A stretch of 64,000 nt of DNA from Escherichia coli (GCF_022846255.1 NZ_AP025682.1), one strand, 5' to 3'; positions 1-64,000 are shown, counted from the stretch's first letter. The notes: generated by a model not told the origin, from the sequence alone. Made by a program: numbers and translations.

Positions 1-2101
1 CCAGTTTCTGTACCGAGACATTCAGCCGTTCGAAGAACAAGCCCCAGGTTTGACCGGAGACGCGCAGCGCCTTGAAGCGCCCGGTTTCCTGGCGGGTGCT
101 GGAAAGACGCAGTTCAATACACTCAGAAACCAGTTGCTGCACGCGAGTACGGATTAACCCGCGCAGATGCTGGCTATAACAGAAGACTTCCACACTATCT
201 GGCGGTGCGGCGTCCTGATGCATTTTGCCGAGAATGGTTTTCAGGGCTTCAATCATCGACTGCTCACCGTTGAAGTGCAGCGTACGCACTTCGTTCCACG
301 AGTTGCGATACAGCAGGTCAACGCTACCCACCAGGCAATTTTGATTCTCGCCAAAGCTGAAGACATCCAGCTTACGGAAATCAAAATGCACCACCTGATT
401 GCGGAAGGCTGCCGTCGGGTCATATTCCAGGTTAACGATAATCGCCAGATGGCGGATCTCACACGGGCTGTAGAGCGCCTTCGGTGTCGGTGCAGGTAAG
501 CGCAGCGGGAAATGGTGCGACACGTCGGCGACCATCTCCTGCAACTTAGGCAAATCGACAATGCCGTTACCTTTAATATACAAGCGGGTGCGCGAGGTCA
601 GCAGGCCGTTAAACCATGCCCACGCCACCAGTTTATTCAGGTAACGGTTATATTCCAGCGGCTGATGGCTGATGATCGACTCAATATTTGGCGCGCGGTT
701 ATACAGATACCAACCTGAACGGTTAGCCCGGCCCGGCGGCACATAAATAAAGGTCAGATTCGGTTCCGAGAGATCGGGTGAAATCTGCGGGTTTACCAGC
801 GTCACTTTACCCGGTAACGCTTCAAACGCGGCGTACAGTTTACGTGTCAGAACACCGATATCCTGCGGGCTGGCGGAAACGCTAAGGTTATTGCGACGCG
901 CAAAGCGGATCAGATTGCGGTAGCTCTGCATCATCGCGTCGAGCAACTCGTTGTGCGCCTCACGCACCTGATCAATCTTCCAGTTAGCGCGATTATCAAG
1001 CATTGCCAGACGAGAATCGTCCCATTCCCACTCTTTCACCAACTGGCTTAACACTTCACGACGCCAGCCTACGCAGGCGCGTTCACGGCTGAGTTTTTCG
1101 CAAACTTTTAAATAGAAGCATCGGCGAACTAAATCCAGACGAGTAAAATCTTCGATCGCCGTCAGATATTCAGTGACGCGCTCCAGCATCATGCAATACG
1201 GGTCGAGACCAAACGACACTATTTCGCCGTCGTGCAAACGCTGTTTGATATCTTTCGCCAGCAGACGTGGGTTCGGGTATTCCCAGGAATAGGCTTCCAG
1301 CAGCAGTGTTTTCAGCACCGCTTTGTATGGGGAATCGATACTCTTGTAGAGCTGCCAAAGGCTGGCACCAAAGTACTCTTCAGCAGAAAGCGAGCTTAAG
1401 CCACCAAGATCCAGCCATTCATTTGGCGTCAACACGCCCTGCGCGTAAAGCGTCATCACATAGTCGTCGTAATGCTCTTCTTCGTCGCACGGCACCATAT
1501 TCCACAGAATACGCTTACCGGCGAGACGCACGGCGGTACGATAAAATTCGTCAAGCAGCAGTATATGCTGGGTGGAGCCACAATCTTCGCCCCCCAGGCT
1601 GCCGCTTTCATTATGACGGAAGCGGTTTTCATCAATCAGGAAGAAGCTGACTTCCACACCCAGCGAGGCGGCCCAGCTTTCCAGCAGACTACATTTACGT
1701 TGTAGCAACTGGCGCTCTTCGCTATCGAGCCAGGATTGATGACAGACCCAGATATCCAGGTCAGAGGAACAACTTTGCCCTACGGACGAGGTGCTGCCCA
1801 TGGTGTATACACCAGTAATTGGAAGCTCACCTTTCGGTGGGTCCTGTACTGACATTCCACGATACAGTTCAAGCTCGTTCAGGTAGTGGCGTTGAGTTTC
1901 ATCAGGCGTGTAAAGGCAAATGCCTTTGGGAACGTTACCATCAAGGTAACCCGGCATTAGCGGATGGTGATAGTGCAACAATGTCGGCAGTAGACTGTAG
2001 ACCTGTTGGAATGCAGGCCCCATAGCAGCAAGCGCGCGATCCACACGCAATTGATTTATGGCATCCAGTCTCTGTTTCAGAGTCTCAATATAGAGGTACA
2101 A
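1..2101 (-). CDS. cyaA: Adenylate cyclase CyaA, 5' portion (N-terminal ~700 codons; 3' end lies beyond window start); TTG start codon
   Basis: Minus-strand translation from TTG at 2101 reads [13 protein letters not shown]...; no in-frame stop to position 1 (no closed ORF in this frame in the track); divergent from hemC as in E. coli. Confidence 0.88.
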
Positions 2102-2487
2102 GACGTATCGCCTGATTTGCTACCCGTCATGACTGTGATTCCGCCAACATCAACGGTAACACGCGGCATTCGGGATATTTCGTATGTCAAAGGTAACCGT
2201 TACCACTTTTCGCGCCTGGTTTTTTTAGTTTCACGACGAAAAAATGGTCTAAAACGTGATCAATTTAACACCTTGCTGATTGACCGTAAAGAAAGATGCG
2301 CTACATACAAGTGTAGCACCGTTTATTCTCTGTAAATTCCTTATTACGAAGGCTCAAAGCGCCTGTCAGGATCCACTGCCAGACCTCATTTTACGGTTTG
2401 CGCAGGCGTCTACGTTTCACCACAACACTGACATCGCTCTGGCAAGGATGTTAGGATGGACCACGGATGATAATGACGGTAACAAGC
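2102..2487. promoter_or_regulatory. cyaA-hemC divergent intergenic region (cyaA and hemC promoters expected here)
   Basis: 386-bp noncoding gap between divergent cyaA and hemC starts; individual promoter elements not resolved by eye. Confidence 0.4.
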
Positions 2488-3429
2488 ATGTTAGACAATG
2501 TTTTAAGAATTGCCACACGCCAAAGCCCACTTGCACTCTGGCAGGCACACTATGTCAAAGACAAGTTGATGGCGAGCCATCCGGGCCTGGTCGTTGAACT
2601 GGTACCGATGGTGACGCGCGGCGATGTGATTCTTGATACGCCGCTGGCGAAAGTAGGCGGAAAAGGCTTATTTGTGAAAGAGCTGGAAGTCGCGCTCCTC
2701 GAAAATCGCGCCGATATCGCCGTACATTCAATGAAAGATGTGCCGGTTGAATTCCCGCAAGGTCTGGGGCTGGTCACCATTTGCAAGCGCGAAGATCCCC
2801 GCGATGCCTTTGTATCCAACACCTATGACAGTCTGGATGCGTTACCGGCAGGCAGTATCGTCGGGACGTCCAGTTTACGTCGCCAGTGCCAACTGGCTGA
2901 ACGCCGCCCGGATCTGATTATCCGCTCCCTGCGCGGCAACGTCGGCACTCGTCTGAGCAAACTGGATAACGGCGAATATGATGCCATCATTCTTGCCGTA
3001 GCCGGACTAAAACGTTTAGGTCTGGAGTCCCGCATTCGCGCCGCGTTGCCACCCGAGATTTCTCTTCCGGCGGTAGGGCAAGGTGCGGTGGGCATTGAAT
3101 GCCGCCTTGATGATGCACGCACTCGCGAGCTGCTCGCCGCGCTGAATCACCACGAAACTGCACTGCGCGTTACCGCCGAACGCGCCATGAATACCCGTCT
3201 CGAAGGCGGATGTCAGGTGCCAATTGGTAGCTACGCCGAGCTTATTGATGGCGAAATCTGGCTGCGTGCGTTGGTTGGCGCGCCGGACGGTTCGCAGATT
3301 ATTCGCGGTGAACGCCGCGGTGCGCCGCAAGATGCCGAACAAATGGGGATTTCGCTGGCAGAAGAGCTACTGAATAACGGCGCGCGCGAGATCCTCGCTG
3401 AAGTCTATAACGGAGACGCCCCGGCATGA
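2488..3429 (+). CDS. hemC: Porphobilinogen deaminase (hydroxymethylbilane synthase)
   Basis: ORF 2467..3429; product matches HemC from [19 protein letters not shown] (third in-frame ATG at 2488), 313 aa. Confidence 0.95.
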
Positions 3430-16963: not shown

Positions 16964-18094
16964 TCAGGAGAAGTAGTTCAACAAGGTCGCAATTACCGTA
17001 CGCTGATTGACGGGCGACAGGTTGTAGAACAACGGCAGGCGCAGCAGGCGCTCGCTCTCTTTGGTGGTGTAGCGATCTTCACCGTGGAACTCACCAAAGC
17101 GTTCCCCCGCAGGGCAACCGTGCAGCGGAATGTAATGGAACACCGCCATGATTTCCGCTTCTTTCAGAAAGTTAATCAATGCGCTCCGGTCATCAATATC
17201 CCGCAGTTTAATGTAGAACATATGCGCGTTCTGCACGCAGCCATCGGGAATCGACGGCAGCTCGATACGCCCGGCTTTCGCCAGAGGTGCTAACGCATCG
17301 TAGTAGTTTTGCCACAGCGCCAGACGCTGCTGATTGATACGATCCGCTGCTTCCAGTTGCGCCCACAGGTACGCAGCTTGCAGATCGGACATCAAATAGC
17401 TGGAGCCAATATCGCGCCAGGTATATTTATCGACCTGACCACGGAAGAACTGGCTGCGGTTTGTGCCTTTTTCACGGATGATCTCTGCTCGTTCGATCAA
17501 CGCTTTATCGTTAATCAGCGTCGCGCCGCCTTCACCACCCGCCGTGTAGTTTTTGGTTTCATGGAAGCTAAAGCAGCCAATATGACCAATGGTTCCCAGC
17601 GCACGCCCTTTGTAAGTGGACATCACGCCCTGAGCGGCATCTTCCACCACAAACAGATTATGCTTCTTCGCCAACGCCATAATGGTGTCCATTTCGCAGG
17701 CCACACCCGCGTAATGGACCGGCACGATAACGCGCGTTTTGTCGGTGATCGCCGCTTCAATCAGCGTTTCGTCGATGTTCATGGTGTCCGGGCGAACATC
17801 CACAAAGACGATTTTCGCGCCACGCAGCACAAAGGCATTGGCGGTGGAGACAAAGGTGTAGCTCGGCATGATCACTTCATCGCCAGGCTGGATATCGAGC
17901 AGCAGCGCCGCCATCTCCAGCGAAGCGGTGCAGGATGGCGTCAGTAACACTTTGGCGCTGCCAAAACGTTGCTCCAGCCACTGCTGGCAGCGACGGGTAA
18001 AACCGCCATCGCCACACAGTTTGCCGCTACCCATTGCCGACTGCATATAGTCGAGTTCGGTTCCCACCACCGGCGGTGCGTTAAATGGAATCAT
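16964..18094 (-). CDS. wecE: dTDP-4-dehydro-6-deoxy-D-glucose aminotransferase (PLP-dependent)
   Basis: 376-aa ORF; DegT/aminotransferase family; matches WecE/RffA. Confidence 0.93.
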   Translation of the reverse strand: MIPFNAPPVVGTELDYMQSAMGSGKLCGDGGFTRRCQQWLEQRFGSAKVLLTPSCTASLEMAALLLDIQPGDEVIMPSYTFVSTANAFVLRGAKIVFVDVRPDTMNIDETLIEAAITDKTRVIVPVHYAGVACEMDTIMALAKKHNLFVVEDAAQGVMSTYKGRALGTIGHIGCFSFHETKNYTAGGEGGATLINDKALIERAEIIREKGTNRSQFFRGQVDKYTWRDIGSSYLMSDLQAAYLWAQLEAADRINQQRLALWQNYYDALAPLAKAGRIELPSIPDGCVQNAHMFYIKLRDIDDRSALINFLKEAEIMAVFHYIPLHGCPAGERFGEFHGEDRYTTKESERLLRLPLFYNLSPVNQRTVIATLLNYFS

Positions 18095-18098
18095 GTGA

Positions 18099-18773
18099 TC
18101 ACCTGTATAACCAGTACGCGGTGCTTTCTACATTCGCACCACTTTGTATGTATCGTTTAAGCGCGGCGGTGTTGCCCATCTGGGTCGCCACCCGCAAAGT
18201 TGTTTTACCGCGAGCATACGCCCAGTTTAGCGCTGTTTGCATTAGCTCAGCACCTGCACCGCGTCCAGCCAGCAGGCCAATTCGCGCATCTGTCGCATTG
18301 AGTTCCCGTAAAGAGACATAGCCGCGAATATCGCCGGACGCCGCACGTAAAATCAGACATTGATGATCAAAGGTGCCGCGCACGGCATTTTCAATCCACT
18401 GCGCATAAAAGCGACCGCTGGCGTCAGGCGCATACCATGGCGCACGAAAACGGCTTTGCGCAAATGCGGCGCTGGCTAACTGACGTAATGCGGGAATATC
18501 GGTCTCTTGTGCCACTACAGCACCGCTATCACTGACATTGTTCACGGGTAGCGCCAAATCAACTTCACCTTCTACCAGGGAGAATCCCAGCTGTTGCAGG
18601 GCATCCAGTTCACCCGTATTTGATGCCGCAATTTTGGCCTGCACCCGTGACCACGGCGCTAACGCGTCTGGCGTCAGGAGCGGTGCTTCAGACGTAATGC
18701 GCACAATGGCACTGTTAACACCAAAGAAGGCGTTTTCCCAGGTTAGTGGCTCAATACTGGCGCGGACGGGCAC
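18099..18773 (-). CDS. wecD: dTDP-fucosamine acetyltransferase (GNAT)
   Basis: 224-aa ORF; overlaps rffH 3' end by 23 nt; a shorter 181-aa form from an internal GTG is possible. Confidence 0.85.
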
Positions 18774-19632
18774 GAAGTAACTCCAGCAGATATTGGCCGT
18801 AGCCAGTTTTCGCCAGCGAGCTGGCGGCGCGCTTCACGCCTTCGTCATCAAGCCAGCCGTTACGCCAGGCGATCTCTTCCAGGCAGGCAATCTTAAAGCC
18901 CTGGCGTTTTTCCACCGTCTGTACAAAGGTGCTGGCTTCAATCAGGCTGTCGTGAGTGCCAGTGTCCAGCCAGGCAAATCCGCGCCCGAGCAGTTCAACG
19001 GTCAGGTTGCCCGCCTCGAGGTACATCTGGTTGATGGAGGTAATCTCCAGTTCACCACGCTCCGACGGCTTCACCTGCTTTGCGTACTCCACAACTTTAC
19101 TGTCGTAGAAATAAAGCCCGGTCACCGCCCAGTTTGATTTTGACTGTTTTGGCTTTTCTTCCAGAGAGATAGCGCGGAAATTGTCGTCAAACTCCACGAC
19201 GCCAAAGCGTTCTGGATCCATTACCTGATAGCCAAATACCGTCGCCCCTTGCGTGCGCGCCGCAACATGACGCAGCTTCGGACTGAAGCCCTGACCGAAG
19301 AAGATGTTATCGCCCAGCACCAGACAAGATGGCTCACCATTAAGGAAGGTTTCACCGATGATAAATGCCTGCGCAAGACCGTCCGGGCTGGGCTGTTCGG
19401 CATATTCCAGCTGGATACCGAACTCACTACCATCGCCCAGCAGGCGCTGGAAATAACCTTTGTCTTCCGGCGTAGTGATGATGAGAATTTCGCGGATACC
19501 GGCCAGCATCAGCACCGACAGCGGATAGTAAATCATTGGCTTATCGTAAATCGGCAACAGTTGCTTCGATACGCCGCGCGTAATCGGATGCAATCGGGTG
19601 CCGGAACCGCCCGCCAGGATAATACCTTTCAT
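18751..19632 (-). CDS. rffH: Glucose-1-phosphate thymidylyltransferase 2
   Basis: 293-aa ORF starting [18 protein letters not shown]...; matches RffH. Confidence 0.95.
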
Positions 19633-19650
19633 GTTTGCCTCCGCTGAGAA

Positions 19651-20718
19651 TTAGCCGTTCAGACCTAAACGCTCGCCCTGATAGCTGCCGTCCTGCACCT
19701 GCTTCCACCAGCTTTCATTAGCCAGATACCACTGAACCGTTTTACGCATTCCACTTTCAAAGGTTTCCTGCGGCAGCCAGCCAAGTTCACGGGCAATTTT
19801 CGAAGCATCAATGGCATAGCGTAGGTCATGCCCTGGACGGTCAGCGACAAAGGTGATCAGATCGCGATAGTGCACCACGCCGTGCGGCTTGTTCGGAGCC
19901 AGTTCTTCCAGCAGCTCGCAGATGGTTTCCACAACCTCGAGATTCTTACGCTCGTTGTGACCGCCAATATTATAGGTTTCACCGACTTTCCCGGTGGTCG
20001 CCACGCAATACAGCGCGCGGGCATGATCTTCAACATACAGCCAGTCACGGATTTGCTGCCCGTTGCCATATACCGGCAGCGGTTTACCCGCCAGCGCGTT
20101 GAGGATCATCAGCGGGATCAGTTTTTCCGGAAAGTGGTAAGGACCGTAGTTATTCGAGCAGTTGGTGATAAGCGTCGGCAAACCATAGGTCCGCAGCCAG
20201 GCGCGCACCAGATGGTCGCTGCTGGCTTTTGACGCGGAATAAGGGCTGCTCGGCGCATACGGCGTGGTTTCGGTGAAGAAATCATCCGTCGAGTGCAGGT
20301 CACCATATACTTCGTCGGTGGAGATATGATGAAAACGGAACGCTGATTTTTTATCTTCCGTCAGCGCAGTCCAGTAAGCCCGCGCCGCTTCAAGCAGTGT
20401 ATAAGTCCCGACAATGTTGGTTTCAATAAACGCTGCCGGGCCGTCAATAGAACGGTCAACATGGCTTTCGGCTGCCAGATGCATGACACAGTCTGGCTGA
20501 TACTCAGTGAATACGCGCGCCAGTTCTGCCCGATCGCAGATATCAACTTTCTCAAAGGCAAAGCGCTCGCTTTGCGCGACCGGTGCCAGCGACATCAGGT
20601 TTCCGGCGTAGGTCAGCTTATCGACCACCACCACCGCGTCGCTCGTTTCGTTGATGATATAACGCACCAGCGCCGAGCCAATAAACCCGGCACCACCTGT
20701 TATCAGAATCTTTCTCAT
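19651..20718 (-). CDS. rffG: dTDP-glucose 4,6-dehydratase 2
   Basis: 355-aa ORF with N-terminal GGAGFIG Rossmann motif; matches RffG. Confidence 0.95.
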
Positions 20719-21980
20719 CAGCGCCAGACTCCTTTGGCATCGACGACATACTGCTGATGGACGTTGTCGCCATTGATAACTTTGAACTGACTATGATCGA
20801 CCAGCATCACCAGCACATCTGCCGTTGCCAGCGCCTCGTCAAGCTGCGCCAGAGTACAAAGCCCGGTCAGTTTCTTCGGCAACTGGTGGATGTTAGGCTC
20901 AACAACCAGCGTTTCGCCGCTGTGCCACTGGGCGATCAGTTCAGCGATTTCCATCGCAGGGCTTTCACGCAGGTCATCAATATTCGGTTTAAACGCCAGA
21001 CCAAAGCAGGCGATTTTCAGTTCACTGGCGCGTTTATCGGTAGCAGCAAGGCAGTCGGCAACCGCCGCTTTCACCTGATCGATAACCCAGAACGGTTTGT
21101 GATCGTTCACTTCGCGCGCGGTACGGATAAGCCGCGCCTGCTGCGGGTTCTGTGCCACGATAAACCACGGATCAACAGCAATGCAGTGACCGCCCACGCC
21201 AGGACCAGGCTGAAGAATATTAACGCGAGGGTGACGATTCGCCAGGCGAATCAGTTCCCAGACGTTAATTCCCTGATCGGCACAAATCAGCGACAGTTCG
21301 TTAGCAAAAGCGATATTCACATCGCGGAAGCTGTTTTCGGTGAGCTTACACATTTCCGCCGTCCGCGAGTTAGTGACGACACACTCACCTTCGAGGAAAA
21401 TTTTGTACAGTTCGCTGGCGCGGGCCGAACAAACCGGCGTCATACCACCAATCACGCGATCGTTTTTAATCAGCTCGACCATAACCTGGCCCGGTAACAC
21501 GCGTTCCGGGCAGTAAGCAATGTTGACGTCCGCCAACTCGCCCACCTGCTGTGGGAAAGTGAGATCTGGACGCATCTCTGCTAACCATTCTGCCATCTTC
21601 TCGGTTGACCCCACCGGCGAGGTGGATTCAAGGATCACCAGCGCGCCTTTTTTCAGCACTGGCGCAATGGAGCGAGCAGCCGATTCAACGTAGGTCATAT
21701 CTGGCTCATGATCGCCTTTAAACGGCGTGGGTACAGCAATCAGCCAGGCATCCGCTTCAACCGGCGTCGTGCTCGCTCGTAAAAAACCGCCTTCTACGGC
21801 AGTTTTTACTACGCTCGCCAAATCAGGCTCGACGATATGGATTTCGCCACGATTGATGGTATCAACTGCGTGTTGGTTGATATCGACACCAATCACCTGT
21901 TTTTGCCGAGAGGCAAACGCAGCTGCTGTAGGCAGCCCGATGTAACCCAGTCCGATAACAGAAATGGTCGCAAAACTCAT
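20718..21980 (-). CDS. wecC: UDP-N-acetyl-D-mannosamine dehydrogenase
   Basis: 420-aa ORF; GxGxxG NAD-binding N-terminus; matches WecC. Confidence 0.95.
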
Positions 21981-30502: not shown

Positions 30503-30535
30503 GCCGGATGCGATGCTGACGCATCTTTTCCGGCC
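30503..30535. repeat. REP-like palindromic element between gppA and rep
   Basis: gccggatgcgatgctgacgcatc...ccggcc, REP consensus. Confidence 0.55.
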
Positions 30536-30539
30536 TTGA

Positions 30540-32561
30540 TTATTTCCCTCGTTTTGCCGCCATCATAGCTTTCAGATTCGCCAGATGGCTTTGCCCTTTC
30601 TGCATCCGTTCTTCGGCGCTGACCACTTTGCGCTCCTGTTCCCAAATCAGATCATCCTGCGGCAGCTCCAGCAAAAAGCGGCTCGGCTCCGGGCGCACCA
30701 GTTCGCCGTACTGACGGCGTTCTTTACACAGCGTAAAGGTCAATTCCTTCTGGGCGCGGGTAATGCCGACATAGGCCAGCCGCCGCTCCTCATCGATATT
30801 ATCTTCATCGATGCTGCTCTGGTGCGGCAAAAACCCCTCTTCCATACCGACCATGTAGACATAAGGAAACTCCAGCCCTTTCGACGCGTGGAGAGTCATC
30901 AGTTGCACCTGATCCAGCTCTTCTTCACTCTCACCACGCTCCATCATGTCGCGCAAAGTAAAGCGCGTCACCACCTGGGTGAGCGTCATCGGCTCATCCA
31001 GTTCGCTGCCTTCCAGCATCTCCGTCATCCAGCTAAACAGTTGGTTGACGTTCTTCATGCGCATTTCGGCGGCTTTCGGGCTGGGCGATGTTTCGTACAG
31101 CCAGGATTCATAATCCATGCCGTGGATCAGATCACGCACCGCGGCAATCGGCTCCCGCTCCGCCAGACGCTGGATTTCTGCCAACCAGTGAGTGAAGCGG
31201 GTCAATGCTTCATAACCACGTCCGCTAAGCGTCTGACTCAGGCCCATATCAAAGCTGGCGGTAAACATGCTTTTATTGCGCGTCATCGCCCATTCACCCA
31301 ACTTTTTCAGCGTCGCCGGGCCAATCTCTCGCTTCGGCGTGTTAACGATACGCAGGAACGCACTATCATCGTCCGGGTTAGTCAGCACGCGCAGATAAGC
31401 CAGCAAGTCCTTGATTTCAGGACGAGAGAAAAACGACGTACCACCAGAAATTTTGTACGGGATGCGGTTTTGCATCAGGAATTTTTCAAACACCCGCGAC
31501 TGATGGTTACCGCGATAAAGAATGGCGTAATCTTTGTACTGCGTTTTATTGACGAAGTGATGGGCGATCAGCTCGCCGGTGACGCGCTCGGCTTCATGTT
31601 CCTCGTTATTCGCGCTTAAAACTTTTAGCTCTGTGCCGTAACCCAGTTCGGAGAACAGACGCTTTTCAAAGACGTGCGGATTATTGGCGATCAGGATGTT
31701 CGCCGCTTTCAAAATACGTCCGGAAGAGCGGTAGTTCTGCTCAAGCTTAATCACCTTCAGCGCCGGAAAATCCTGACTCAGCAGCACCAGGTTTTGCGGA
31801 CGTGCGCCGCGCCAGGAGTAGATCGACTGGTCATCGTCACCCACCACGGTAAAGCGCGCGCGGCTGCCCACCAGCAGTTTCACCAGCTCATACTGGCTGG
31901 TGTTGGTGTCCTGATATTCGTCCACCAGCAGGTAGCGAATTTTGTTCTGCCAGCGCTCGCGGACTTCTTCATTGCGTTGCAGAAGTAGCGTCGGCAATAA
32001 AATCAGATCATCGAAGTCGAGAACGTTACAGGCTTTCAGGTGTGCATCATACAGCCCATAACAATGGGCAAAAATACGGTCCCGCTCGCCCTTTGCCTCT
32101 GCCGCCGCCTGCGCCGGTGTTTTGAGATCGTTCTTCCAGTTGGAGATGGTCGAAATTAGCTGTTGCAGGAGAACTTTGTCATCTTCAATCAGCCCCTCGG
32201 TCAACTCTTTAAGCAAAGCAAGCTGATCGGTATCGTCAAACAGCGAAAAGTTAGCCTTCATCCCCAGCGCCGCATACTCGCGTTTGATGATATCCAGCCC
32301 CAGCGTGTGGAAGGTGGAGATCATCAGCCCACGCGCCTCTTTGCGCCCCAGCGTCTGCCCGACACGCTCTTTCATCTCGCGTGCCGCCTTATTGGTAAAG
32401 GTCACCGCCGCGATATGTCGCGCCTGATAACCGCAACCGCGGATCAGATGGGCGATTTTATTGGTGATAACACGAGTTTTACCGGAACCCGCGCCCGCCA
32501 GCACCAGGCAGGGGCCGGTAACGAATTCGACAGCTTGTTGTTGGCCGGGGTTTAGACGCAT
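30540..32561 (-). CDS. rep: ATP-dependent DNA helicase Rep (SF1)
   Basis: ORF 30540..32576; start at [29 protein letters not shown] (673 aa); Walker A present. Confidence 0.95.
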
Positions 32562-32599
32562 AGGAAAATCGCTCAATGAAAGTCGGGAGGGGAAAATAA

Positions 32600-32929
<330 letters not shown>

Positions 32930-59176: not shown

Positions 59177-61045
59177 TTAGATTTCGACCTGAGTACCCAG
59201 TTCGATAACCCTGTTTGGCGGGATTTCAAATTGATCCGGCGCACGCAGCGCATTACGTTGCAACAGCAAGTACAGCTTACCGCGCAGACGCAAATACCAC
59301 GGGCGTTTGCCGAGGATCAACGACTCATGCGACATAAAGAAGGAGGTTTCCATCATCCGGCAACTTAATCCTTCCAGACCGCAGCGGTGGAATACTTCTT
59401 CCACGTTTGGCGTTTCTCGCCAACCATAACTTGCCACCACGCGCCAGAACGTCGGCGACAGTTGTTCAATCTGTACCCGACGGACGTTATGGACATAAGG
59501 CGCGTCTTCGGTGCGCAGAGTTAACAGAATCACCCGCTCATGCAATACCTTGTTATGTTTAAGGTTATGCATCAGCGCAAAGGGAATGACGTTGATTGCA
59601 CGTGACATATACACCGCGGTCCCGGGCACGCGAACGGGCGGTGATTTCTCCAGCGAAGCAATCATCGCCTCCAGAGAGTTACCATGTTCATGCATCCGCC
59701 GCAGCAAACGGAAACGTTCGCTCTTCCAGGTGGTCATCACGATAAACATCACCGTACCGAGGCTCAATGGCAACCAGCCGCCGGAGAGCAGTTTATCGAG
59801 GTTAGCGGTGAACAATGGAATATCGACACAAAGGAAAGCAATCAGGATCAGCGCAACAAAATACTTATTCCAGTGCCAGTTCTGACGTGCCACGGTAGTC
59901 GAGAGAATAGACGTCAGCACCATGGTTCCGGTCACCGCAATCCCGTACGCCGCCGCCAGGTTGCTGGAGTGCTCAAAGCTGACAATCACAATCACGACCG
60001 CGACATAGAGCATCCAGTTCACAAACGGAATATAGATTTGCCCTGACTCCATTTCGGAGGTGTGAATAATGCGCATCGGCGACAAATATCCCAGACGTAC
60101 CGCCTGACGCGTCAATGAGAAGACGCCAGAGATAACAGCCTGCGAGGCGATTACCGTCGCCAGTGCGGCGATGATCAGCAGCGGGATCAGCGCCCAGTCC
60201 GGGGCCAACAGGAAGAACGGGTTCTTAATTGCTTCCGGGTTCTTTAACAACAGCGCTCCCTGACCGAAGTAATTAAGAGTTAAGGAAGGCAATACGACGG
60301 TGAACCACGCCAGACGAATCGGGAACTTACCAAAGTGCCCCATATCAGCATACAGCGCCTCGACCCCCGTAATCGACAGCACCACTGCCCCTAATGCAAT
60401 AAAAGAAACCGTTTTGTATTCAAGGAAGAAATGCACCGCCCACATCGGATTCAGCGCATGCAGCACTTCCGGGTTAGCAATAATGCTACGTAACCCCAGC
60501 CCAGCCAGAATCAAAAACCAGGTCAGCATGATCGGCGCAAACAGCTTACCGACCATAGCCGTGCCATGTTTTTGAATCATAAATAATAAAGTGAGAACGA
60601 TAATTGAGAGGGGAACTATCCAGGTATCCAGCTGCGGGGCGACGATTTCCAGACCTTCAATGGCTGACATCACCGAAATAGCGGGTGTTATGACGACTTC
60701 ACCATAGAAAAAGCTGCCGCCGATTAGCCCCATAATCACCAGCATTGATGTGGTTCGCGCCGACGTATTGCGCCCGGCAAGCGACATCAACGTCAGGATC
60801 CCCCCTTCACCGGCGTTATCTGCCCGCATCACGAAGGTGAGATATTTAATGGAAACCACAAAGATTAGCAGCCAGAAGATCAGCGATAAAAAGCCAAACA
60901 CGGCATCGCGTTCAACGCCAAAACCAAACTGGCCGGACAAACATTCACGAAGTGTATATAACGGGCTGGTACCAATATCGCCGTAGACAACTCCAATCGC
61001 CGCGAGGGTAATCGCGGGCAATGATTGCTTATTATCAGTGCTCAT
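59177..61045 (-). CDS. kup: KUP-family low-affinity K+ uptake transporter
   Basis: 622-aa [35 protein letters not shown]...; matches Kup/TrkD. Confidence 0.95.
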
Positions 61046-61267
61046 AGACTAGTCTTTCGTTGAAATATGAAATGTGTGCTTAGTCCCTTGGCCCACAAAA
61101 AAGCGCACAGTATGCACGATTAACGGCAAAATCGTACTCCTAAATGCGGCCACATTAACCTGGCTCAAAGAAAAATACCCCCCCTTTGAGACTATTTTAG
61201 CCACCAGCAAGAAACGTCTATACTCGCAATTTACGCAGAACTTTTGACGAAAGGACGCCACTTCATT

Positions 61268-62764
61268 ATGGCTCACCCTCATTTATTAGCGGAAAGAATT
61301 TCCCGCCTGAGCAGTTCGTTGGAAAAGGGGCTTTATGAACGTAGCCACGCCATCCGCTTGTGTTTATTAGCGGCATTAAGTGGTGAAAGTGTGTTCCTCC
61401 TTGGCCCGCCAGGTATTGCCAAAAGTTTGATCGCCCGGCGCTTAAAATTCGCCTTTCAGAATGCCCGCGCGTTTGAATATCTGATGACTCGCTTCTCCAC
61501 GCCGGAAGAGGTTTTTGGTCCCCTTTCTATTCAGGCGCTAAAAGATGAAGGGCGCTATGAACGTTTAACCAGCGGTTACCTGCCGGAAGCAGAAATCGTC
61601 TTTCTGGATGAGATCTGGAAAGCGGGTCCGGCAATTCTTAATACCCTGCTCACCGCCATTAACGAGCGCCAGTTCCGCAACGGCGCACTCGTAGAAAAAA
61701 TCCCGATGCGTCTGCTGGTGGCGGCCTCCAACGAGCTGCCGGAAGCAGACAGCAGTCTGGAAGCGTTATATGACCGCATGCTGATTCGTCTGTGGTTAGA
61801 TAAAGTGCAGGATAAAGCGAATTTCCGCTCCATGCTGACCAGTCAACAGGATGAAAATGACAATCCGGTTCCTGCCTCCTTGCAGATCACAGATGAAGAA
61901 TATGAACGCTGGCAGAAAGAGATTGGTGAAATTACGCTGCCCGATCATGTATTTGAGCTGATTTTTATGCTGCGCCAGCAACTGGATAAATTACCGGATG
62001 CGCCTTATGTCTCGGATCGTCGCTGGAAAAAAGCGATTCGATTATTGCAGGCCAGCGCCTTTTTTAGCGGTCGCAGTGCTGTTGCCCCGGTTGATCTCAT
62101 TTTGCTGAAAGATTGCCTGTGGTATGACGCGCAAAGCCTGAATTTGATACAACAACAAATTGATGTATTGATGACCGGTCATGCCTGGCAACAGCAAGGG
62201 ATGTTGACCCGCCTTGGCGCGATTGTGCAACGTCACCTGCAACTCCAGCAGCAACAAAGCGATAAAACAGCCATAACGGTAATTCGTCTGGGCGGCATTT
62301 TCAGCCGTCGTCAGCAGTATCAACTCCCTGTTAACGTTACTGCTTCCACTCTGACTCTGCTGCTGCAAAAACCGTTAAAACTGCATGATATGGAAGTGGT
62401 TCATATCTCCTTTGAGCGTAGCGCGCTGGAACAGTGGCTGAGCAAAGGTGGTGAAATTCGCGGCAAACTAAACGGTATCGGCTTTGCCCAGAAACTGAAT
62501 CTGGAAGTTGATAGCGCCCAACATCTTGTTGTACGCGATGTAAGTTTACAAGGCAGTACGCTGGCACTTCCCGGTTCATCGGCTGAAGGTCTGCCAGGTG
62601 AAATAAAACAACAACTGGAAGAGCTTGAAAGCGACTGGCGCAAGCAACACGCTTTATTCAGCGAACAGCAAAAATGTCTGTTTATCCCTGGCGACTGGTT
62701 AGGTCGCATTGAAGCCAGCCTACAGGATGTCGGCGCACAGATTCGCCAGGCACAACAATGCTAA
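61268..62764 (+). CDS. ravA: MoxR-family AAA+ ATPase RavA
   Basis: ORF 61244..62764; start at [27 protein letters not shown] (498 aa); Walker A GPPGIAKS. Confidence 0.93.
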
Positions 62765-64000
62765 CGCTGGATACGCTTAATGTGATGCTGGCCGTCAGCG
62801 AAGAGGGATTGATCGAAGAGATGATCATCGCGCTGCTGGCCTCACCGCAGCTGGCAGTCTTCTTTGAAAAATTCCCACGACTGAAGGCGGCAATCACTGA
62901 TGATGTTCCCCGCTGGCGTGAGGCGCTGCGCAGTCGGCTGAAAGATGCCCGAGTCCCGCCGGAACTCACCGAAGAGGTGATGTGCTATCAGCAAAGCCAG
63001 CTCCTCTCCACGCCGCAGTTTATTGTGCAGCTACCACAGATCCTGGACTTACTGCAGCGTCTGAATTCCCCATGGGCAGAACAAGCCCGACAGTTGGTTG
63101 ATGCTAACAGCACGATCACTTCAGCGTTACACACGCTTTTTCTCCAGCGTTGGCGTTTAAGTCTGATCGTGCAAGCAACGACGTTAAATCAACAGCTATT
63201 AGAAGAAGAACGCGAACAACTGTTGAGTGAAGTTCAGGAACGCATGACGCTGAGCGGACAACTTGAACCGATTCTCGCAGATAACAATACCGCAGCTGGT
63301 CGTCTGTGGGATATGAGCGCCGGTCAGCTTAAACGTGGCGACTATCAGTTGATTGTGAAATACGGTGAATTTCTTAACGAACAGCCGGAACTGAAACGCC
63401 TGGCAGAACAGCTGGGGCGTTCCCGGGAAGCCAAATCAATACCGCGCAACGATGCGCAGATGGAAACCTTCCGCACCCTGGTGCGCGAACCGGCGACGGT
63501 TCCTGAGCAGGTTGATGGTCTGCAACAAAGCGATGATATTTTACGTCTCCTGCCGCCAGAACTGGCGACACTAGGGATAACAGAACTGGAGTATGAGTTT
63601 TACCGTCGGCTGGTGGAAAAACAGTTGCTCACCTATCGCCTGCACGGTGAGTCATGGCGAGAAAAAGTGATCGAACGTCCGGTGGTACATAAAGATTACG
63701 ACGAACAGCCGCGCGGACCGTTTATTGTCTGTGTGGATACTTCCGGCTCAATGGGCGGCTTTAATGAACAGTGTGCGAAAGCGTTCTGCCTGGCCTTGAT
63801 GCGCATTGCTCTCGCTGAAAACCGGCGCTGCTATATTATGCTATTTTCCACCGAGATCGTCCGTTATGAGCTTTCAGGCCCACAAGGCATCGAACAAGCA
63901 ATCCGTTTTTTAAGCCAGCAGTTTCGTGGCGGCACCGATCTGGCCAGTTGTTTTCGCGCCATTATGGAACGCTTGCAAAGCCGGGAATGGTTTGATGCCG
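62758..64000 (+). CDS. viaA: VWA-domain protein ViaA, 5' portion (runs off window end)
   Basis: ATG at 62758 overlaps ravA stop (ATGCTAA); translation [31 protein letters not shown]... continues without a stop to 64000; von Willebrand MIDAS motif DTSGSM near the end. Confidence 0.9.

Follow-up and report, generated by a model that had tools for sequence, protein, structure and literature searches.

Does the overlap between ravA and viaA in Escherichia coli serve to pass ribosomes from one gene to the other, or do the two reading frames simply happen to share a few nucleotides? We considered this question in a window of 64,000 nucleotides (the whole stretch of DNA analysed), whose gene order, cyaA ... 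rrn operon ... rbs ... kup / ravA-viaA, is that of an E. coli-like chromosome. The window is colinear with E. coli MEI003 at 96-98.8% identity, and over 62400-63100 the top identity among complete E. coli genomes is at most 99.6%, so the window probably comes from a lineage absent from that set. The features on which the argument turns are the following, in window coordinates.

61046..61267, strand not applicable: divergent kup-ravA intergenic region, with the operon promoter and the ravA Shine-Dalgarno (SD) sequence AAGGA at about 61251-61255
61268..62764, + strand: ravA coding sequence, 498 codons plus TAA, MoxR-family AAA+ ATPase; RefSeq limits identical
62748..62750, + strand: SD-like AGG inside the RavA codons CAG GCA, 7 nt 5' of the viaA ATG
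62758..64000, + strand: viaA coding sequence, first 414 of 483 codons, truncated by the window end; VWA-domain partner of RavA
62758..62764, + strand: dual-coding overlap ATGCTAA, 7 nt, distance -7; read directly, and given in RefSeq and in Huber 2023 Supplementary Table 2
62758..62760, + strand: viaA start codon ATG, the sole start codon kept across 81 species (the best 80 loci of the species scan plus E. coli MEI003)
62761..62763, + strand: viaA codon 2, the rare Leu codon CTA, constrained by the ravA stop
62762..62764, + strand: ravA stop codon TAA, made of the last two bases of viaA codon 2 (CTA) and the first base of viaA codon 3
62782..62787, + strand: viaA codons 9 (GTG) and 10 (ATG), in-frame start candidates, rejected

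The overlap is real and was already annotated and catalogued. The first-pass annotation had placed the viaA ATG 4 nt 5' of the ravA TAA within ATGCTAA, and both direct reading of the + strand at 62758-62764 and RefSeq agree with it, 7 nt being common to the two genes. ravA and viaA are co-directional, both on the + strand, with viaA in the -1 frame relative to ravA: the ravA frame ends in CAA CAA TGC TAA and the viaA frame opens with ATG CTA ACG, so that the TGC codon of RavA Cys498 is made of the TG of the viaA ATG and the next C. The RefSeq limits in E. coli MEI003 (ravA 1869-3365, viaA 3359-4810) give the identical 7-nt overlap. As such, this is ordinary bacterial operon architecture.

Several other features of the surrounding region were recorded on the way. 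Compared with MEI003, the window is devoid of the IS1397 copy found there between rep and gppA (30518-32635 in the window, 17293-21575 in the MEI003 region L082) and of a segment encoding a PemK/MazF-family toxin in the ppiC-rep interval, which measures about 58 nt in the window and about 790 nt in MEI003. Same-strand overlaps are also present elsewhere in the region of about 70 kb (L082 and L083), at ilvG-ilvM, wecB-wecC, wzxE-rffT, rffT-wzyE and hemC-hemD (all -4), wecC-rffG (-1) and rfbA-rffC (-23); ravA-viaA is the sole -7 among them. Two overlaps in the same region are convergent, ilvA/ilvY (4 nt) and rbsR/mdtD (35 nt).

The identity of both products, an AAA+ ATPase and its VWA-domain partner as initially proposed, is borne out by family models. 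The match of the RavA reading frame (498 aa) to the NCBIfam RavA equivalog extends over residues 1-498 at 990 bits (cut-off 681), and the frame contains the Pfam domains bpMoxR, AAA_5, AAA_lid_8, LARA_dom and ATPase_RavA_C. The ViaA reading frame (414 codons to the window end) scores 722 bits against the corresponding ViaA equivalog (cut-off 500), carries VWA_2 and VWA_CoxE, and displays a MIDAS-type DTSGS at residues 327-331 of its translation. At the other end of ravA, the mechanical open reading frame begins at TTG 61244 (506 aa; window 61244-61270) and the annotated start is ATG 61268. The latter, which has also been used experimentally, is preceded by AAGGA (-5.3 kcal/mol) and agrees with the primer in Felix et al. 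2022.

The whole question depends on where viaA begins. A GTG at 62782 and an ATG at 62785 are both in-frame start codons in E. coli; if either were the true start, the annotated one would be wrong, a gap of 18-20 nt would separate the genes and there would be no overlap. Against this, ViaA is conserved at the protein level from residue 1: in an alignment of ViaA from 16 genera, residues 1-8 (MLTLDTLN) are conserved, whereas other genera have A, I, L or M at positions 9 and 10. The alignment to the NCBIfam ViaA model likewise begins at residue 1, and in 13 of 81 loci (the best 80 plus MEI003) the annotated ATG is the only in-frame candidate start within the first 11 codons. In the other direction, the viaA frame contains no ATG, GTG or TTG between ATG 62758 and the nearest upstream in-frame stop, 16 codons 5'. 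The two downstream codons were rejected as starts, not being conserved as such elsewhere while the N-terminus is kept from residue 1. Thus, as judged by comparison of protein sequences, the start at ATG 62758 is well supported, and we regard a misplaced annotation as highly improbable.

The junction is strongly conserved. Its 58 nt are present in 5,416 complete E. coli genomes, and 5,285 of these match with an identity of 99% or higher. Between species, we scanned one genome per GTDB species and retained the best 80 loci, all from Enterobacteriaceae with ViaA identities of 77-99%, which together with MEI003 make 81. All 81 display a stop/start overlap, and neither a gap nor an overlap longer than 7 nt occurs among them. 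The -7 form is found in 51 loci, as ATGCTAA (27), ATGCTGA (23) or ATGTTAA (1), which can be summarized as ATGYTRA. A -4 overlap, ATGA, is found in 17, 10 of them Klebsiella/Raoultella-type, where the ATG is placed one codon further 3', and a -1 overlap, TAATG, in 13. The three forms share a common relative frame and are interconverted by single substitutions, except that RavA is one codon longer in the -1 forms. Two records stand apart by their titles: one named Chryseobacterium sp. 18061 (L034) and one named Vagococcus sp. WN89Y (P0076) carry an Enterobacteriaceae-type ravA-viaA with 82-83% identity to E. coli ViaA, and these assemblies are probably contaminated or mislabelled.

On a neighbour-joining (NJ) tree of the flanking coding sequences, Fitch parsimony requires the form of the overlap to have changed independently at least 9 times, versus a mean of 27 with shuffled tips. 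The inferred root state is -7 and each change shortens the overlap; the same shortening route has been proposed in the model of Huber et al. 2023 (PMC10666635) for overlaps of this phase. Because all 81 loci (best 80 plus MEI003) keep an overlap despite at least 9 changes of its form, the overlap exceeds what chance would maintain.

What the overlap imposes on the two proteins can be read at the codon level. In the -7 class the ravA stop, TAA in 28 loci and TGA in 23, forces viaA codon 2 to CTA, CTG or TTA, which are found in 27, 23 and 1 of the 51 loci, respectively; CTA accounts for only 5.1% of Leu codons in the remainder of viaA. Among the 13 loci of the -1 class, in which the ravA stop is situated further 5', none has CTA at codon 2 and 5 have CTC. 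On the RavA side, all 51 members of the -7 class end in ...QC*, since caATGc forces Gln(CAA)-Cys(TGC), and the other classes end in ...QP*, ...QS*, ...RQ* or ...QL*. This tail varies between genera, and the overlap is tolerated because the last one or two residues of RavA are unconstrained. Loss of the -7 stop would make RavA longer by 5-20 codons.

Outside this family, the picture loosens. We sampled ten full-length representatives of ViaA 50% clusters, with 30-64% identity, a small set in which gene starts are gene-caller predictions. The ravA-to-viaA distances (nt) are as follows.

L084: +3, with kup-ravA-viaA-asnA synteny kept
L085: -4
L086: -1
L087: +9
L088: -4
L089: +18
L090: +3
L091: +113
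L092: +18
L093: +175 / +101, in the order viaA-like, ravA, viaA

The last of these (L093:862-4855) has ravA (553 aa) between an upstream gene for a ViaA-like protein of 497 aa and a second viaA, of 481 aa, downstream, two VWA paralogues thus flanking one MoxR ATPase. The ten junctions differ in SD strength, which spans -2.4 to -9.5 kcal/mol. For the MoxR->ViaA COG pair at large, the published distance has a median of +3 nt, with quartiles of -4 and +14 (n=175; Huber et al. 2023, PMC10666635). MoxR AAA+/VWA pairs (COG0714->COG2425; NorQ-NorD, CbbQ-CbbO) resemble ravA-viaA in that a MoxR gene is followed by a closely spaced VWA partner; unlike it, most are without the 7-nt overlap. Close spacing therefore appears to be a trait of the family, and overlap, the -7 form especially, a trait of Enterobacteriaceae. 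The initial description of the arrangement as typical of coupling between an AAA+ ATPase and its VWA partner does not hold for the overlap, given the family median of +3 nt and distant loci that range from -4 to +113 nt. Because the pair is often separated outside Enterobacteriaceae, by up to +113 nt, coupling based on overlap does not seem to be required for the system.

How, then, could viaA be translated in E. coli? The operon status of ravA-viaA is described in the literature, as are its sigma-S dependence under aerobic conditions and its control by Fnr, and the native promoter in Wong 2014 corresponds to 206 bp upstream of ravA. Our sigma-70 consensus scan found no sigma-70-like promoter in 60900-64000 (0 versus 2.8 expected), a result of limited sensitivity as the operon's own promoter was likewise missed, the kup-ravA intergenic region (61046..61267) giving no sigma-70 consensus match. 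The terminator scan detected none on the + strand between ravA and viaA. In the acid-stress data of PMC10746267, ravA appears in the ‘Ribo-Seq/RNA-Seq exclusive’ list of Supplementary Table S3, and viaA is absent among the rows listed there; the supplements of Mori 2021 have no entry for ravA or viaA.

The sole SD-like element of viaA is the AGG, whose duplex with the 16S 3' end is worth -2.5 kcal/mol. Across 54 annotated genes of the region the median reaches -5.9 kcal/mol, and only 9 of them are equally weak or weaker. Weak SDs prevail in all three overlap classes, with medians of -2.5 (-7), -2.7 (-4) and -5.2 kcal/mol (-1).

One of the two accepted general models of coupling (Brown & Wade 2025 review) calls on RNA structure: a hairpin would hide the viaA start, ribosomes translating the end of ravA would open it, and free ribosomes would then initiate. 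The junction offers little ground for such a mechanism. A 121-nt RNA spanning it folds at -29.5 kcal/mol, no better than its shuffles (mean -33.6 kcal/mol, z = +1.0), and is therefore not unusually structured; the consensus fold of 24 species reaches only -2.6 kcal/mol, shows 0 compensatory pairs and has a weak helix that leaves the start codon unpaired. We consider this mechanism very unlikely at ravA-viaA. Since neither a stable nor a conserved fold covers the start, unfolding is disfavoured and re-initiation is left as the candidate route of coupling.

The -1 frame of viaA relative to ravA might also evoke a programmed -1 frameshift site yielding some RavA-ViaA fusion protein, the more so as a Salmonella enterica serovar Infantis record (P0007) contains a 785-aa open reading frame, named ViaA, with bpMoxR, AAA_5 and AAA_lid_8 together with VWA. 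Yet an X XXY YYZ slippery heptamer is absent at gcacaacaatgctaa and in ...gcacaacaatgctaacg..., and neither the single-sequence nor the consensus fold provides a downstream stimulatory structure. As to the Salmonella fusion-like frame, it falls short of the combined length of the two proteins by about 200 residues, and this points to a deletion and not to a frameshift product; its probable origin is a deletion spanning the junction or a faulty assembly there. We give next to no credence to frameshifting here.

Our preferred reading, held with moderate confidence, is that a substantial part of ViaA comes from ribosomes that re-initiate after ravA termination, giving a co-regulated and sub-stoichiometric output. 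The two cistrons would be carried by one mRNA in which RavA UGC UAA is written over viaA AUG CUA A, and a ribosome terminating at the ravA UAA would re-initiate on the adjoining viaA AUG. From codon geometry, with the UAA in the A site, the UGC at 62759-62761 should occupy the P site and the AUG at 62758-62760 should lie 1 nt upstream of the P-site codon. The displacement of the AUG from that codon would be -1 nt in the -7 form, +2 in the -4 form and +5 in the -1 form, so all three are expected to keep it beside the terminating ribosome. A weak SD and a backward step would make re-initiation inefficient, which would be compatible with the measured level of about 1 ViaA per 4 RavA.

This proposal is in keeping with what is known of short distances in general. 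Huber et al. 2023 (PMC10666635) regard distances from -8 to +10 nt as favourable to termination-reinitiation and report, for E. coli pairs in this range, a 4.5-fold enrichment in subunits of complexes; the -7 distance lies within these limits, and all 81 loci (best 80 plus MEI003) have -7, -4 or -1. On the other hand, the first reading of the locus held -7 to be a typical coupling arrangement, whereas the enriched overlap classes are -4, -1 and -8 and the series -7, -10, ... is depleted (Brown & Wade 2025 review; Huber et al. 2023, PMC10666635). More overlap also lowers coupling efficiency further than more spacing does, at least as Tian & Salis are reported in a paper citing them.

The nearest experimental references are the coupled E. 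coli pairs tested by Huber and colleagues (PMC6728339, PMC10666635). Like ravA-viaA, they are co-directional within one operon, have the relative frame of ATGA/TAATG and hold the ribosome binding site (RBS) within the upstream reading frame; unlike it, they are spaced by -4 to +1 nt and not by -7, the class reported as depleted (PMC10666635). Four of five native overlapping pairs proved coupled, bioBF being the exception, and removal of the SD cut re-initiation in 4 of 5 pairs, the dependence on it ranging from essential to none among them (Huber et al. 2019, PMC6728339), whereas the SD of viaA is weak from the outset. ravA-viaA itself is catalogued in the E. coli table of Huber et al. 2023 (PMC10666635) as ‘b3746 ravA / b3745 viaA, -7, CMPLX not’, that is, scored as not forming a complex; the pairs tested were others. 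We found no published experiment on ravA-viaA coupling in the literature.

Protein levels bear on the kind of output that coupling could give. Quantitative westerns in the literature report about 350 RavA and 90 ViaA molecules per cell, which is not equimolar, and the physical interaction of the two proteins is described as weak or transient. In the trp operon, by comparison, the gene pairs encode subunits of stable heteromeric enzymes made by equimolar synthesis, whereas RavA and ViaA stand at about 4:1 and interact weakly. The trp case, attributed to the 1980 work of Oppenheim and Yanofsky, is said to be the founding one in which stop/start juxtaposition links the yields of interacting products. 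At ravA-viaA, it is fair to call the arrangement consistent with coupling, but the words ‘typical’ and ‘fixed stoichiometry’ of the first-pass annotation exceed the evidence.

The most direct observation on ViaA synthesis comes from Wong et al. 2014, in which the ViaA level is the same in the wild type and in a clean ravA deletion, and ViaA is over-produced in ravA::cat. At face value, the unchanged level argues against a dependence of viaA on ravA translation. This result is confounded: the reverse complement of the pKD3 P2 primer tail used in that study, ctaAGGAGGatattcatATG, contains a strong SD together with an ATG directed into viaA, and we infer that the ravA deletion carried the same tail. 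Because the P2 scar sets an SD and an ATG just upstream of viaA, the unchanged ViaA cannot decide the matter; with an engineered RBS before viaA, the published ravA deletions are silent on coupling.

The overlap could also be a mere product of genome compaction, viaA being initiated de novo by free 30S subunits at a weak RBS that would by itself keep ViaA low. It would persist through the unconstrained RavA tail and through the harm done by a 5-20 residue extension and a long dual-coding stretch if the stop were lost. Several observations fit: the confounded ViaA level in the clean ravA deletion, the free variation of the RavA tail, the spacing of distant pairs up to +113 nt, and the lack of an occluding structure that would stop free ribosomes. 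A precedent exists in bioB-bioF of E. coli, which is overlapping and has a downstream gene with a weak SD as in ravA-viaA (very weak in bioF), and in which bioF is translated de novo and uncoupled in the reporter system (Huber et al. 2019, PMC6728339). Moreover, selection against RavA read-through accounts just as well for the constraint on viaA codon 2; since both passive overlap and coupling predict this constraint, the comparative data do not separate the two. Three points speak against passive overlap. Across the 81 species (best 80 plus MEI003) at least 9 changes of form never produced a gap, even though the published MoxR->ViaA median is +3 nt; an SD of -2.5 kcal/mol that lies within a translated reading frame makes a poor site for de novo initiation; and four of the five overlapping E. 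coli pairs tested are coupled. We judge purely passive overlap a credible but doubtful explanation.

A stronger version of our preferred termination-reinitiation reading can be formulated, in which the -7 AUGYURA is itself tuned and not merely an intermediate on the way to -4 or -1: the 1-nt backward shift, the near-absent SD and the rare CUA would combine to set a deliberately low and fixed ViaA:RavA ratio of about 1:4. We consider such tuning rather unlikely. If true, it would account for -7 being the inferred ancestral and majority state in Enterobacteriaceae despite the general depletion of the series.

The ravA-viaA overlap is of little importance beyond the operon itself. Its series, from an ancestral -7 repeatedly to -4 or -1 and never to a gap, provides a clean, small illustration of the published model of short-overlap evolution, which it leaves unchanged. 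For the operon, if coupling is real, premature stops, insertions and deletions in ravA could lower ViaA too, and the reading of the phenotypes of ravA single mutants, such as aminoglycoside sensitivity and the interactions with fumarate reductase and Nuo, would be affected.
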